Source: an uncultured Candidatus Saccharibacteria bacterium
GTDB taxonomy: Bacteria > Patescibacteriota > Minisyncoccia > Phycocordibacterales > UBA9973
NCBI GenBank assembly: GCA_964426555.1
Contig: CAYRQJ010000005.1
Span: 5,901-69,900, forward strand
DNA length: 64,000 bases
Reading direction: 5' to 3'
How positions within the stretch are numbered: the first letter of the stretch is position 1; each line of letters begins with the position of its first letter. The notes under the pieces were generated by a model. It made no database searches, had not been told where the DNA came from, and was given only the letters and a program-made list of their open reading frames with translations. The position numbers and the translations under genes are program-made. Of this stretch, positions 5,637 through 36,412 are shown piece after piece.

Positions 5637-5963
5637 ATGATAAATATAGACACATTTAAACAAACAGAAATTCGCATTGGTAAAATTATCAGCGCAGAGA
5701 AAGTTGAAAAATTAGACAAAATTTTAAAACTACGCGTTGATTTTGGAGAATTAGGGGAAAGACAAATATTGTCCGGTATTGCAATGACATTTACTGACCC
5801 AGCTGTACTAGTTGGACGTCTTTGTCCTTTTGTTACAAACCTTGAACCAAGAATAATTAACGATCTTGAATCACAAGGTATGATATTGGCAATGAAAGAT
5901 GAAAATGGAATTGTCTTATTGTCACCTGAGCGTGAAATAACACCCGGTTCACTTGTTGGTTAG
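5637..5963 (+). CDS. Stand-alone tRNA-binding domain protein (CsaA/Trbp111/MetRS-C-terminal-like OB fold)
   Basis: IRIGKIISAEKVEKLDKILKLRVDFGE resembles EMAP/MetRS C-terminal tRNA-binding domain. Confidence 0.7.
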   Translation: MINIDTFKQTEIRIGKIISAEKVEKLDKILKLRVDFGELGERQILSGIAMTFTDPAVLVGRLCPFVTNLEPRIINDLESQGMILAMKDENGIVLLSPEREITPGSLVG

Positions 5964-31997: not shown

Positions 31998-32020
31998 AAT
32001 ATAAAACAAAAAGCAGCCAG

Positions 32021-32251
32021 TTATTCTCCAGCTGCTTTTTGTTTATTCTTATCGTCGTCAGTTTTTTGATTTTCTTTTTCTACTTCTTTTTCCGTACTTT
32101 GTTGCTTCTTTTTATCGTCTTCATTATTTTCTTCGTTTGGTTCTGTTACGGGATCGTCAGTTTTTTCAGGTGCTTTTTCTTTACCTTTACCACCATCTGC
32201 TACTATTGCAGTACTTGGCATTTCAATTTTTTTCATTAATTCTCTGAACAT
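32021..32251 (-). CDS. Hypothetical Lys/Glu/Asp-rich low-complexity protein
   Basis: 76-aa ORF between terminator-like hairpins. Low complexity, weak support. Confidence 0.3.
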   Translation of the reverse strand: MFRELMKKIEMPSTAIVADGGKGKEKAPEKTDDPVTEPNEENNEDDKKKQQSTEKEVEKENQKTDDDKNKQKAAGE

Positions 32252-32307
32252 TTTATTATTATTAGCTTATTTACATATATTGTCAAATAGGGTAATATAT
32301 AAATATA

Positions 32308-32475
32308 AGCGCTTGAGAGGTTATCAGCCTTTAGCTTTGGGAAGAAACCCTAAACATTAAATTTAGTGTTCGGGCTAGTAGAACCCAGTAAATGAGAAGT
32401 AATTAAGGTGGTACCACGAGTGAAGCTCGTCCTTATATAACAATTAATTTTGTTGTATGTGGACGAGTTTTTTTA
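32308..32475 (+). promoter_or_regulatory. T-box riboswitch leader, Ile-specific (specifier AUC), upstream of ileS
   Basis: Stem I with GAGAGG; specifier loop ttATCa (32323-32325). T-box sequence AATTAAGGTGGTACCACGAG at 32401-32420. Terminator GAAGCTCGTCC...GGACGAG + T7 at 32422-32474. Confidence 0.75.
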
Positions 32476-32489
32476 GTTAATTAAATTTT

Positions 32490-35400
32490 ATGGAAGAAGA
32501 AAAAAAGATAAAAACAAATAACGAACACGAATTGGACGTAATAGAATTTTGGAAGAAAAACCAAATTTTTGAAAAGTCTTTAGAGAAAGATTCACCAAAT
32601 GGAGAATTTGTGTTTTATGATGGCCCTCCTACAGCTAACGGTCGTCCGGGAATTCACCATCTTGAAGCTCGAGCTTTTAAAGATGCAATTCCACGATATA
32701 AAACTATGCAAGGATACCACGTTCGTCGTAAAGGTGGATGGGACACACATGGACTACCTGTAGAACTTCAAGTTGAAAAAGCATTAGGTTTAACAAACAA
32801 AAAACAAATCGAAGAATACGGAATTGCTAAGTTTAATCAAGAATGTAAACAAAGTGTTTGGACTTATATTGATGAATGGGAAAAATTTACTGACCGTATT
32901 GGTTATTGGGTAGACCATAAAAATCCGTACGTTACATATCATAATAGCTATATTGAATCTCTGTGGGATGTAGTAAAAGAAATAAATAAAAAAGATATAT
33001 TATATAAAGATGATCGTATTGTGCCATGGTGTTCACGTTGTGGAACTGCACTGTCTTCTCACGAATTAGCCCAAGGTTATAAAGACGTAAAAGATCTTTC
33101 AGTTACCGCTAAATTTAAAGTAGTAGGGGTTGATAATACTTTTATACTGGCTTGGACTACAACACCTTGGACACTGCCGGGGAATGTTGCACTGGCAGTA
33201 AACGAAAAATTAACTTACGTAAAAATACAAGCAGGGGAAGAGCGATTTATTTTAGGTAAAGATAGGCTGTCTATTATTCAGGGTGAATTTAATATAATCG
33301 AAGAATTTACAGGAGATAAATTAATTGGTTTAGAATACGAGCCTTTGTATTCTTATTTTGCTGAACAATTTAAAGTTCAACAAAAATTAAATCCAACTAC
33401 TAACATGGGTGATATAGAAAAAGCATACCGCGTTTATGCTGCTGACTTTGTAACTGCAAATGATGGTACAGGTATTGTACATACTGCTGTAATGTATGGT
33501 CAAGATGACTTTGTATTGGGTACAAAACTAGGTTTGCCAAAATATCATTTAGTAAATTTAGATGGGACATTTAAAGATGGAATGGATTTTTTGTCTAACA
33601 GATTAGTAAAATCTATAGCAGAAAATGGCGAAGATACTGTTGCCATAGATATAATTAAAGATTTAGCACACAAAGGTCTTTTATTTAAAAAAGAAAAATA
33701 CGAACACAGTTATCCGCATTGTTGGCGCTGCCAAACACCACTTATATATTACGCTCGAGATTCTTGGTATATCCGTATGAGTGATTTACGTGAAGATTTA
33801 ATAATGAATAACAATTTTATTAACTGGGAACCAAAACACGTTTCTCAGGGTAGATTTGGTGAATGGATTAGTGAAGTAAAAGATTGGGCAATATCTCGCG
33901 AAAGATATTGGGGGACACCACTACCAATTTGGGAAGATACAAATGGAGTTCGTCATATTTTTACTAATAAAGCAGAATTAATAAAAAGTTCTAAAAATTC
34001 TGGTAATAATTATACAATGATTCGTCATGGTGAAGCACAAAGTAATTTAACTAAAACTTGTAGTTTTGCTAATGGAAATATTATTGATTTAACAGAGACA
34101 GGGGTAGAACAAATAAAGACTGCAGCCAGTGAATTAAAAGATAAAAAATTTGATTTAATTTATACTTCACCATTTCTTCGGACTCGTCATACTGCAGAAA
34201 TTATTGCAGATCAGCTGGGTATTCCACATGTAAATATTATTACAGATGATCGATTAGTAGATTTGAATACTGGAATTTTTGAAGGCAAAACTTGGCCAGA
34301 ATATTTTGATTTCTTTTCTGATAAAGATCGCTACAATGTTCCATCTCCTGGTGGAGAAAGTGTTCTAGATGTTAAAAGAAGAATTGGAGATTTTGTTTAT
34401 GAAATTGAAAAAAATACAAACGGTAAAAATATTTTAATTGTAGCTCATGGGATTAGTCTTTGGATGCTTGAATGTGTAGCAAAGGGGGCAGATATTCCAG
34501 GAATGAAAAAAATTCGTGAAGATTTAAATCATGATATTCACCAAGATTCACTTCCAAATGGTGCACATAAAGAATTAAATTTTGTACCAATGCCACATAA
34601 CCTTGATTATGAATATGACCTGCATCGTCCTTTTATTGATGAATTTCCAGTATTTAACGAAGCTGGAGAAAAGCTTACAAGAGTCAGCGAAGTAATGGAT
34701 GTCTGGTTTGACTCTGGGGCTATGCCATACGCACAAGATGGTTATCCAAATTTAACTGATAATATTCATTTCCCAGCAGATTATATTTGTGAAGGTATGG
34801 ACCAAACTCGTGGATGGTTTTATACTCTGCACGCTGTTTCGGCGTTACTTGGGCGTGGTCCAGCTTATAAAAATGTAATATGTCTGGGGCTTATTTTAGA
34901 TAAAGAAGGTCAAAAAATGAGTAAATCTCGTGGCAATGTTACATCACCTTGGGAGATGTGTGAAAAATACGGAGCAGATGCATTACGTTTTTGGATGTAT
35001 TCAGTAAATCAACCAGGAGACAGTAAAAATTTTGATGAAAAAACAGTTGATGAGGTTGTAAAAAAAGTTTTTAATCTTATCCGTAATGTTTATGCATTTT
35101 ATGATTTATACCGAAATCGAGATAGTGAGAAAACTTATGAAGAAAATACATTATCTAAAAACGTATTAGATAAATGGATATTAGCAAAGTTAAGTAATTT
35201 AATTACAAACACTACAAATTCATTGGATGCTTATTCATTGCTTAACCCCACTCGCGACATAAGAAGTTTTATTGATGATTTGTCTACTTGGTATTTGAGA
35301 CGCAGTCGTGACCGTATGCGTGAACTTGACCCACAGGCACTGCAAACAATTTATATTGTTTTAAAAAATTTAGCGAAATTAATTGCACCTTTTGCTCCAT

Positions 35401-35966
35401 TTATTGCAGAAGAATTATGGCTTGATTTAAAAAATGAAAAAGATGAACAAAGCGTTCATCTATCAAATTGGCCCAAATCCATAAACATTCCAGAAAACGA
35501 AATGTTATTAGAATCAATGGAGATGGTTCGTGATTTATGTACAGGGGGTCATGCTTTGCGTAAGTCAGTAAATATTCCTGTACGGCAGCCACTACTTTCA
35601 TTTACTATCGATAAAGAAATAGATGAAGAATTGCAAGATTTAATTCGTGAAGAATTAAACGTAAGAAATATTGTAATTTCAAATAAAATAGCATTAAATA
35701 CTGAAATTACAGATGAACTAAAAGACGAAGGTAATTTTAGAGAATTTGTTCGTTTTCTTCAGGATAATCGAAAATCTCAAGGGCTTAACGCTGGGCAAGT
35801 TGTTGATATAAAAATAAAATCAAATCATGATGCTTTTGAATTTATAAATCGTTGGCAAGAACAAATTAAAAAAGAGGTTTCTATTAATGAAATAATCACA
35901 GATAATTCTTTGAATAGTGAAATATTAAAAATAGAAAACATGGAATTTGCTATAATGTTCGTATGA
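32490..35966 (+). CDS. ileS: Isoleucyl-tRNA synthetase with a nested histidine-phosphatase (phosphoglycerate-mutase-like) domain
   Basis: IleRS CP1 motif TTPWTLPGN and KMSKS. An insert at ~34017-34545 carries RHGEAQSN, SPFLRTRHTAE and ILIVAHGIS (branch-1 histidine phosphatase motifs), placed between the PIW and DLHRPFID segments. Confidence 0.9.
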   Translation: MEEEKKIKTNNEHELDVIEFWKKNQIFEKSLEKDSPNGEFVFYDGPPTANGRPGIHHLEARAFKDAIPRYKTMQGYHVRRKGGWDTHGLPVELQVEKALGLTNKKQIEEYGIAKFNQECKQSVWTYIDEWEKFTDRIGYWVDHKNPYVTYHNSYIESLWDVVKEINKKDILYKDDRIVPWCSRCGTALSSHELAQGYKDVKDLSVTAKFKVVGVDNTFILAWTTTPWTLPGNVALAVNEKLTYVKIQAGEERFILGKDRLSIIQGEFNIIEEFTGDKLIGLEYEPLYSYFAEQFKVQQKLNPTTNMGDIEKAYRVYAADFVTANDGTGIVHTAVMYGQDDFVLGTKLGLPKYHLVNLDGTFKDGMDFLSNRLVKSIAENGEDTVAIDIIKDLAHKGLLFKKEKYEHSYPHCWRCQTPLIYYARDSWYIRMSDLREDLIMNNNFINWEPKHVSQGRFGEWISEVKDWAISRERYWGTPLPIWEDTNGVRHIFTNKAELIKSSKNSGNNYTMIRHGEAQSNLTKTCSFANGNIIDLTETGVEQIKTAASELKDKKFDLIYTSPFLRTRHTAEIIADQLGIPHVNIITDDRLVDLNTGIFEGKTWPEYFDFFSDKDRYNVPSPGGESVLDVKRRIGDFVYEIEKNTNGKNILIVAHGISLWMLECVAKGADIPGMKKIREDLNHDIHQDSLPNGAHKELNFVPMPHNLDYEYDLHRPFIDEFPVFNEAGEKLTRVSEVMDVWFDSGAMPYAQDGYPNLTDNIHFPADYICEGMDQTRGWFYTLHAVSALLGRGPAYKNVICLGLILDKEGQKMSKSRGNVTSPWEMCEKYGADALRFWMYSVNQPGDSKNFDEKTVDEVVKKVFNLIRNVYAFYDLYRNRDSEKTYEENTLSKNVLDKWILAKLSNLITNTTNSLDAYSLLNPTRDIRSFIDDLSTWYLRRSRDRMRELDPQALQTIYIVLKNLAKLIAPFAPFIAEELWLDLKNEKDEQSVHLSNWPKSINIPENEMLLESMEMVRDLCTGGHALRKSVNIPVRQPLLSFTIDKEIDEELQDLIREELNVRNIVISNKIALNTEITDELKDEGNFREFVRFLQDNRKSQGLNAGQVVDIKIKSNHDAFEFINRWQEQIKKEVSINEIITDNSLNSEILKIENMEFAIMFV

Positions 35967-36412
35967 CATCATTTTTCCTAACATTTGCTAGATTTTTTAG
36001 AGCATTAAAAAGAAGCGTTAAAGATTCTGAATTTAGAAAATTATTTTTAGTTGTGCTTGCATTACTTTTTTCTGGGATGCTTTTTTATCACCTTGTAGAA
36101 GGCTGGAGATTAATTGATGCTCTTTATTTTAGCGTTACAACACTAACAACGGTTGGAACAAATTTTGTTCCACAGCACGATGTAAGTAAAATATTTACCA
36201 TGGTTTATTTAATTGTGGGTATTGGAGTAATGCTTTCTTTTATTACCCACGTTGCAGAACAAGCTAGAAAAGAAGCGTCTGTTTCCAAAGCTATTGCAAT
36301 AGAATCCTATGAACAAACTAAAAAAATAATAAATTCAATGAGTAATATGTTTGAACCCAAGGAAGAAAATGAAACAAAAAAAGAAATAAAAAATCTAAAT
36401 AAAGAATTATAA
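35963..36412 (+). CDS. Two-TM ion channel, K+-channel-like pore (filter TTVGTN)
   Basis: TM1, pore helix FSVTTLTTVGTN, TM2. TGcTATAAT promoter at 35947-35956 lies inside the ileS 3' end. Confidence 0.55.
   Translation: MTSFFLTFARFFRALKRSVKDSEFRKLFLVVLALLFSGMLFYHLVEGWRLIDALYFSVTTLTTVGTNFVPQHDVSKIFTMVYLIVGIGVMLSFITHVAEQARKEASVSKAIAIESYEQTKKIINSMSNMFEPKEENETKKEIKNLNKEL

Follow-up and report, generated by a model that had tools for sequence, protein, structure and literature searches.

A predicted histidine phosphatase nested in, or encoded next to, the isoleucyl-tRNA synthetase of Patescibacteria

Few enzymes have been studied as much as the aminoacyl-tRNA synthetases, whose accessory domains, whether for editing, tRNA binding or signalling, have repeatedly revealed new biology. 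To our knowledge, no reaction of isoleucyl-tRNA synthetase (IleRS) needs a phosphatase. What, then, is a histidine phosphatase doing inside an IleRS gene? The question is raised by a stretch of 64,000 nucleotides (nt) from an uncultured Candidatus Saccharibacteria bacterium (GTDB lineage Bacteria; Patescibacteriota; Minisyncoccia; Phycocordibacterales; UBA9973), covering positions 5,901 to 69,900 of the forward strand of contig CAYRQJ010000005.1 (assembly GCA_964426555.1) and hereafter called the window. Its ileS gene (32490..35966, + strand, as are all features below unless stated) encodes 1158 amino acids (aa), and a preliminary description of the locus had proposed that a histidine phosphatase lies nested within them. 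This proved correct, and we found in addition that the same phosphatase subfamily also occurs as a separate gene directly upstream of ileS genes that lack the insert. Both arrangements suggest that the phosphatase serves IleRS as a dedicated partner.

The host gene was examined for the features of a working synthetase. Its reading frame was continuous, and every IleRS motif quoted in the preliminary description was located in it. The protein matched the NCBIfam profile for ileS, TIGR00392, at 865.7 bits (cut-off 621.4), in two stretches with the insert between them. Pfam split tRNA-synt_1 around the insert, and identified Anticodon_1 (PF08264) and, at the C-terminus, DUF5915 (PF19302). The CP1 motif TTPWTLPGN occupies aa 224-232. 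The nearly invariant WAISRERYWGTPLPIW (aa 466-481, 33885..33932) is the final IleRS element before the insertion site, and IleRS sequence resumes after the insert with DLHRPFID (aa 710-717, 34617..34640), as placed by motif match and by alignment with Protein Data Bank (PDB) structures. The KMSKS signature loop follows at aa 809-813 (34914..34928), and each of its residues (K809, M810, S811, K812 and S813) was invariant among 120 nested homologues.

Comparison with the PDB indicated a type-2 enzyme (IleRS2), the protein matching IleRS2 at 760 bits and IleRS1 at 334 bits (phmmer), and its C-terminal domain is likewise of the type-2 kind, without the Zn-binding SD3. The best matches were the Priestia megaterium IleRS2 structures 8c8w and 8c8v, which a Foldseek search with the full-length model also recovered (E = 4e-84). 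Models for MupA and MupB scored ~745 bits on the window IleRS, under their exception cut-offs. The HIGH signature is non-canonical, reading GIHH (aa 54-57, 32649..32660), and aligns with GVHH of the 8c8w hyper-resistant mutant. Among the 120 homologues H56 and H57 were invariant, and G54 and I55 were at least 90% conserved. The G/AXHH form of HIGH has been tied to mupirocin hyper-resistance in IleRS2 (PMC10485003). By these matches the window gene is identified as an otherwise normal type-2 IleRS of the G/AXHH subclass.

The insert itself was recognized by Pfam as a branch-1 histidine phosphatase domain. His_Phos_1 (PF00300) matched aa 510-676 (34017..34517) with E = 1e-34 and 120.3 bits (gathering score 21.7), covering profile positions 3-170 of 194, and the excised insert gave 3.8e-36. 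The three motifs on which the preliminary description had based its claim are MIRHGEAQSN (aa 510-519, nt 34017-34046), the second Arg/His motif SPFLRTRHTAEII (aa 560-572) and the C-terminal His motif ILIVAHGISLWML (aa 648-660). AlphaFold modelled the insert with high confidence, both alone (pLDDT 91.9, pTM 0.89) and within the full-length protein, where the insert region reached pLDDT 91-97 (whole model: mean pLDDT 88, pTM 0.80). The nearest solved structures found by Foldseek were the metal-independent phosphoserine phosphatase PspA (4ij5/4ij6), small phosphoglycerate mutases, the alpha-ribazole phosphatase CobC, PhoE and a riboflavin-pathway phosphatase, at 20-26% identity, E of ~1e-14 to 1e-12 and TM 0.6-0.77. 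Profile and model thus agree on an independently folded branch-1 histidine phosphatase domain.

Enzymes of the His_Phos_1 family act through a histidine nucleophile and a phospho-histidine intermediate. In the 120 nested sequences R512 and H513 of the RHG motif (34023..34028), of which H513 is the predicted phospho-accepting nucleophile, were each present in 120/120, as were R564, the second phosphate-binding arginine (SP..R; 34179..34181), and the distal catalytic histidine H653 (34446..34448). G514 was kept in 119/120 and N519 in 114/120. The acidic residue at the proton-donor position (RLxE/D), D591 in the window protein (34260..34262), was Glu in 108 sequences and Asp in 12. An N-x-Y signature precedes the RHG strand (N506 and Y508, 34005..34013) and was found in all 120. 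The same catalytic residues were kept in 27 sequences of the standalone phosphatases described below, in which the counterparts of the signature (N5 and Y7) were invariant and the proton-donor position was invariably Asp (D97). Mean identity to the window protein across the 120 homologues was 0.39 for the insert versus 0.68 for the N-terminal and 0.53 for the C-terminal part of IleRS. The phosphatase is probably active, because its catalytic residues hardly vary while the domain as a whole is only ~40% identical.

No characterized subfamily could claim the domain. The CobC equivalog (TIGR03162) gave 89.1 bits, or 93.9 for the insert alone, against a cut-off of 162.9; dPGM_arch (NF038349) gave 79.6 against 225, and pgm_1 (TIGR01258) 45.7 against 81.7. 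The SixA model scored 38-49 bits, under its cut-off, and the PRK mutase models fell far under theirs. The PspA equivalog (NF045917) scored 64-68 bits against 350; PspA is the best structural neighbour, yet 26% identical. We gave up naming a substrate by the neighbours in profile or fold, since every equivalog score lay under its cut-off and the neighbours are so distant. With PspA (4ij5/4ij6), CobC (6e4b, 6nru), PhoE (1h2e) and HFP (9mmh) the insert shares the fold, the full catalytic set and a compact form of ~175 aa without the dPGM-specific extensions. It differs from them in its low identity (20-26%) and in its own N-x-Y-x3-RHG signature, which is common to nested and standalone members and absent from the generic family profile. 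Nesting in, or pairing with, IleRS is likewise a trait of the insert family and is known for none of those four. By its profile scores, the guest is placed as a bona fide PF00300 member outside every characterized subfamily.

Where in the synthetase does the guest reside? Some 176 residues had been described in a place where about 50 are normal. Alignment with 8c8w gave other figures: residue 493 of the query pairs with chain residue 468 and residue 702 with 479, a net insertion of ~208 aa (N-linker, phosphatase and C-linker; aa 494-701, 33969..34592) thus replacing a loop of ~10 residues, and the W...DLHRP spacing in insert-less relatives is ~25-30 aa. A short loop alone occupies the site in the insert-less proteins P0041 and P0043 and in IleRS from loci with a separate phosphatase gene, the two-gene form; in one of these (L130) it reads GSIEELSKKSGKKIEDLHRP. 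The window IleRS resembles P. megaterium IleRS2 (8c8u/8c8v/8c8w) in its HUP core, CP1, KMSKS, anticodon-binding domain and DUF5915 C-terminal domain, and differs from it in carrying the phosphatase where the latter has the ~10-residue loop (468-479), and in being without the zinc-knuckle cysteines. The GC content of the insert (0.31) matched that of its flanks, and composition was uniform across both junctions.

The structure paper on P. megaterium IleRS2 assigns residues 40-168 and 513-632 to the HUP catalytic core, with the connective peptides between them, and the yeast IleRS paper names a CP core, CP1 (editing), CP2 and CP3. Ordinary IleRS2 carry a CxxC...CxxC zinc knuckle around the insertion point. 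The alignment thus places the insert at the tip of the zinc-knuckle hairpin, the last connective-peptide element (P. megaterium 468-479). The earlier statement that the domain is nested in the catalytic core holds as far as sequence goes, the insert lying inside the catalytic domain; in the fold, it lies in the connective-peptide region outside the core, because the HUP core resumes only downstream, at P. megaterium residue 513. The window protein and its close relatives have lost the four knuckle cysteines (aa 481-492 and 718-730; nt ~33930-33965 and 34641-34679). CxxC was kept in 57/120 nested homologues and, where the region was readable, in two-gene-form IleRS; the loss of zinc binding therefore appears later than the insertion.

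A search of related genomes recovered the same insert widely. PF00300 lay inside IleRS in all 120 of the best full-length homologues (54-100% identity, 1111-1217 aa, on contigs of up to 808 kb), and the identical protein was present in NCBI on a 77-kb contig. One genome per GTDB species was scanned with two insert-derived peptide patterns from a nine-sequence alignment, and at least 551 species-representative Patescibacteria genomes were found to encode the nested domain. The 80 loci kept from these came from Nomura-, Kaiser-, Lloyd-, Zambryski-, Vogel- and Taylorbacteria, Paceibacterota, Minisyncoccia and Parcubacteria. A search with the insert and its flanks returned ~40 independent fragments with both PF00133 and PF00300, at 37-45% identity. 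Searching 1.84 billion cluster representatives with the insert returned proteins of two kinds: some were as long as IleRS and had the domain near residue 500, and others were standalone proteins of ~190-210 aa.

Every long or mid-length domain-bearing protein that was checked turned out to be an IleRS, and because of this the partnership appears to be specific to IleRS. Ten mid-length matches (837-959 aa), considered as possible cases of the same insert in ValRS, LeuRS or MetRS, were truncated IleRS. Oddly long matches were not other synthetases either, being IleRS with 2-4 phosphatase copies. Such tandem His_Phos_1 domains stood at the same site in two, three or at least four copies (P0266, P0295 and P0361), and the RHG motif was kept in each copy. 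Of the close matches without PF00300, those aligned were mostly fragments cut within the insert; only P0041 and P0043 were truly insert-less orthologues. Co-inheritance of insert and body, as judged by correlating pairwise identities, was positive but weak (Pearson 0.35, Spearman 0.21), the star-like phylogeny limiting the comparison.

Nested sequences were also seen in bins labelled Nanoarchaeota, Sedimentisphaerales and Bacillota (P0026, P0023 and L060), through either mis-binning or horizontal transfer to hosts outside Patescibacteria. Many nested IleRS carry in NCBI only the name 'class I tRNA ligase family protein' or 'hypothetical protein'. One gene of 1066 aa (P0347; L164, 5001-8201) has an N-terminal half of IleRS interrupted by a domain like that of REP-associated tyrosine transposases, followed by His_Phos_1 and then a GNAT acetyltransferase, and ends without the C-terminal half of IleRS; it is known from one contig. 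We set it aside as a clue to the substrate, as a single truncated gene that is probably a decayed or chimeric paralogue.

The standalone proteins provided a second arrangement of the same pair. For two of them (P0119 and P0050, ~200 aa, sharing 36-39% identity with the insert) the contigs of origin were located. At L081, from a Staskawiczbacteria metagenome-assembled genome, and at L082 the phosphatase gene ended 2 bp before an insert-less ileS; that of L081 encodes 952 aa and matched TIGR00392 at 873 bits in one stretch. The third locus, L083, has the order argS - x - phosphatase - Fic... - ileS. The standalone family comprised 172 matches at E < 1e-10. JGI calls two of its ~200-aa phosphatases (P0416 and P0446) 'isoleucyl-tRNA synthetase'.

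Metagenomes were then scanned with the standalone alignment, and the resulting 80 loci, together with L081-L083, were classified by tblastn with the two halves of IleRS. Five of the 83 were at contig ends, leaving 78 testable loci. In 63 of these the phosphatase lay directly upstream of ileS on the same strand (median gap 24 nt between tblastn ends), in another 5 it lay upstream at a distance of 1-2.5 kb, and in 9 it was nested in ileS. Linkage to ileS was thus found at 77/78 loci. Among 41 directly-upstream loci studied in detail, a stop codon preceded ileS in 39 and the reading frame differed in 33; distances between open reading frames were mostly -4 to +10 nt. By their stop codons and frames, the directly-upstream loci are read as two separate genes. 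Their IleRS, where readable, had at the insertion site the short loop of the zinc knuckle. The HIGH signature of two-gene-form IleRS was GIHH (L116 and L130) or HYGH (L151).

The nine nested metagenome loci were continuous single-frame genes, several of them with the standalone-type motif RHGQTIYQK. No second phosphatase copy was found within ~4 kb at nested-form loci, the window included. In a neighbour-joining (NJ) tree all standalone sequences and five nested ones formed one clade, which means that the nested and adjacent arrangements have interconverted at least once. The tree is unrooted and unbootstrapped, so that it was not taken as decisive for the direction of the change.

Have such unions been seen before? 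Bifunctional RNase H/acid phosphatase (Rv2228c/RnhC type, NF005567) also joins His_Phos_1 to a nucleic-acid-processing enzyme. Its model was among the best NCBIfam scores for the insert and for the standalone partner, at 79-106 bits against a cut-off of 326, so that neither is a member; and the fusion there is end to end, unlike the nested insertion in the window IleRS. The CP1 editing domain is likewise a hydrolase inserted within the Rossmann fold of a class Ia synthetase. CP1, however, is universal and hydrolyses mis-acylated tRNA, whereas the insert is a clade-restricted phosphomonoesterase fold at another connective-peptide site. A second catalytic domain in or attached to IleRS is also found in NF040702, 'ileS_w_GNAT', on which the window IleRS scored 312 against a cut-off of 1999 and is thus not a member. 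We rejected the idea that the extra domain of that family occupies the same site: the flanking model positions (~660 and 696) are only ~35 residues apart, and the domain appears elsewhere. A full-text literature search found no published description of a histidine phosphatase combined with a synthetase, in agreement with the preliminary description, which knew of none. The sequences have been public for years under automatic Pfam labels and generic names, and the partnership of the two enzymes has gone undescribed.

Fusion and conserved gene order are the standard genomic signature of functional coupling. Because the phosphatase is fused to IleRS in some genomes and lies in a conserved, translationally coupled gene order in others, we consider it likely that the insert is an active phosphomonoesterase working as a dedicated partner of IleRS. 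Going by the mechanism of the family, His513 would attack a phosphomonoester to give the phospho-histidine intermediate, with the phosphoryl group held by Arg512, Arg564, Asn519 and His653 and the leaving group protonated by Asp591. The compound hydrolysed, in physical association with IleRS, would be small and probably nucleotide-like. A small molecule is favoured because the nearest relatives are small-molecule enzymes and the domain in its nested form has an acidic pI (median 5.8), and a geometry-dependent reaction is disfavoured because the copy number of the domain has expanded in situ. The phosphatase should take no part in aminoacylation chemistry, for which it seems dispensable because insert-less IleRS are complete enzymes.

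As to what the partner does, a possible but tentative proposal is a dedicated accessory activity that acts on IleRS itself or on something that IleRS binds. It might strip an inhibitory phosphate from the synthetase, as an in-built defence against toxin kinases; it might strip a blocking phosphate from the 3' end of tRNA(Ile); or it might destroy a phosphorylated inhibitor directed at IleRS, or a nucleotide. If the proposal is true, the domain would represent a new quality-control or self-protection module in a synthetase, conserved across a class of uncultivated bacteria.

Several observations weigh against a dedicated partnership or its assumed substrate. Conservation is poor in the cap region (aa ~603-620), a pattern that fits broad specificity or weak constraint by a substrate. 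With all equivalog scores under their cut-offs and solved relatives at 20-26% identity, any substrate class named here is a prior expectation and no finding of the analysis. One phosphatase gene (L156, 5001-5513; P0119-like, 42% identity) lies on a 340-kb contig without an ileS within 5 kb, the sole such case among the testable loci. Selection of the 80 metagenome loci rested on similarity to a protein already known as a neighbour of ileS, and all of them belong to one phylum, within which conserved gene order may partly reflect shared ancestry.

Four other explanations were weighed. The phosphatase might act on a macromolecule, either phosphorylated IleRS or the 2'/3'-terminal phosphate of tRNA(Ile), and so keep isoleucine charging running. 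HipA/HipT-type toxin kinases do phosphorylate the KMSKS-loop serine of other synthetases. The partner of the phosphatase is strictly IleRS, and tethering or translational coupling would suit a target in cis or bound in a complex. The branch-1 family includes protein phosphatases, although SixA scored weakly here (38-49 bits, under cut-off), and the RNase H/acid phosphatase model, among the best-scoring families, is an earlier example of such a domain fused to an enzyme of nucleic acids. Yet the acidic nested domain gives no indication of an RNA-binding surface, tandem arrays of 2-4 or more copies fit poorly with a cis reaction that depends on geometry, and the closest solved relatives act on small molecules. 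Nor was a kinase partner seen in the neighbourhoods examined. We regard a macromolecular substrate as unlikely.

Alternatively, there might be no coupling at all: an ordinary housekeeping phosphatase of the PhoE, CobC or phosphoserine-phosphatase type would have stood beside an ancestral ileS by chance and been fused or co-transcribed for economy in genomes as tiny as these. JGI names standalone relatives 'broad specificity phosphatase PhoE', the variable cap region would suit such an enzyme, and the argS-x-phosphatase-ileS order could be synteny inherited within one phylum. Transfer of an upstream gene into an internal loop is, however, no simple read-through fusion, yet at least 551 species have kept the result. 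Both arrangements persist over a deep divergence of 37-66% identity, with the linkage at 77/78 testable loci described above; nested and adjacent forms exclude each other locally; and in some lineages the domain has multiplied in situ. These features make mere proximity rather improbable.

A purely structural role had been raised in the preliminary description, beside a regulatory or proofreading one. An inactive fold that replaces or stabilizes the zinc-knuckle hairpin would account for the absence of the four knuckle cysteines from the window protein and its close relatives, and for overall conservation that is lower in the insert than in the IleRS body. The catalytic residues, however, are invariant in the 120 nested and 27 standalone sequences, CxxC persists in 57/120 nested proteins, so that the domain did not originate as a substitute for the knuckle, and a standalone gene product cannot scaffold intramolecularly. 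We consider this role highly improbable. Finally, an assembly chimera, mis-joined reading frame or mobile-element or intein insertion can be practically dismissed, as identical junctions recur in hundreds of independent assemblies (NCBI, JGI, ENA and Logan), the window gene is continuous and uniform in composition, the nine nested metagenome loci are single-frame, and Pfam finds in the insert His_Phos_1 only and no intein or transposase family.

An active partner of IleRS thus remains the reading that we prefer, and it ties a phosphomonoesterase fold with a conserved active site to one synthetase across hundreds of Patescibacteria species. Its study could bring to light a new level at which tRNA charging is controlled, repaired or defended in symbiotic organisms with minimal genomes. 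The locus also offers a natural case of the insertion of one enzyme into another, interconverted with a two-gene form. The existence of a nested and standalone family further explains the generic names of ileS genes in NCBI, as well as the standalone phosphatases mislabelled 'isoleucyl-tRNA synthetase'.

Is the window ileS the working copy of its host? The preliminary description had called it functional on the strength of a preceding Ile T-box. A T-box leader with a short Stem I was found at 32303..32437 in a sensitive scan (RF00230, E = 4.3e-7). At the Rfam gathering score of 93 no T-box was reported in the window leader, which reached 39 bits, with ~70 model positions of Stem I deleted in the match. 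The core, the specifier and the terminator nevertheless stood up. The specifier ATC (AUC, Ile; 32323-32325) was placed by leader alignment in the hairpin loop 32319-32329. The T-box core GGTGGTACCACG (32407-32418), a motif conserved in related leaders, overlaps the region of the 5' arm of an intrinsic terminator (32425..32474), whose stem GCUCGUCC...GGACGAG is followed by a U-run. The segment 32300-32480 folded at -53.1 kcal/mol (z = -4.2), and 0/200 shuffles did as well. A promoter-like site, TTTACA-17-TAATAT (32270..32298), lies just upstream of the leader; it is a consensus pattern match, with 3 such sites found against 2.1 expected by chance.

These elements were shared by related leaders. 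The exact core GGTGGTACCRCG stood just upstream of ileS in 16/80 nested loci. Leaders of the same type precede ileS in relatives (L001-L004, L008, L009, L015, L018, L042, L048, L055, L059, L066, L073 and L078). The ATC specifier lay in a short hairpin loop in 16/17 aligned leaders, which also have in common a AGTAGAACCC box, the T-box core and a terminator whose hairpin is followed by a T-run. Because core, specifier and terminator are conserved, the window ileS is predicted to be controlled by tRNA(Ile) charging, as expected for a working ileS. Together with the intact GIHH and KMSKS signatures and the editing and anticodon domains, the Ile T-box supports its assignment as the housekeeping ileS of a Patescibacteria (Paceibacteria/Parcubacteria-type) bacterium, with a predicted role in aminoacylation. 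No T-box was found upstream of the two-gene units in any of 71 testable loci, nor by Rfam in L081-L083. Short-Stem-I T-boxes of ileS have been reported as translational switches in Actinobacteria, whereas the Patescibacteria leader of the window ends in an intrinsic terminator. A terminator-coupled T-box of this kind, scoring far under the Rfam gathering threshold, would escape standard annotation.

The surroundings of ileS were recorded as well. Its stop codon and the ATG of the gene that follows share positions 35963-35966, which suggests co-transcription; the following gene (35963..36412) encodes a 149-aa potassium-channel-like protein with an Ion_trans_2 domain. Other neighbours in the window are genes for a ribonucleotide reductase, a thymidylate kinase and a dUTPase upstream, and for a RecO-like protein and a class II synthetase downstream. 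A strongly T-rich stretch of the + strand (32004-32240) lies between the gene for dUTPase and the promoter of ileS, and resembles a small Lys/Glu-rich open reading frame on the minus strand, ending at a hairpin terminator (32044-32004) with a 17-bp stem that could serve both strands.

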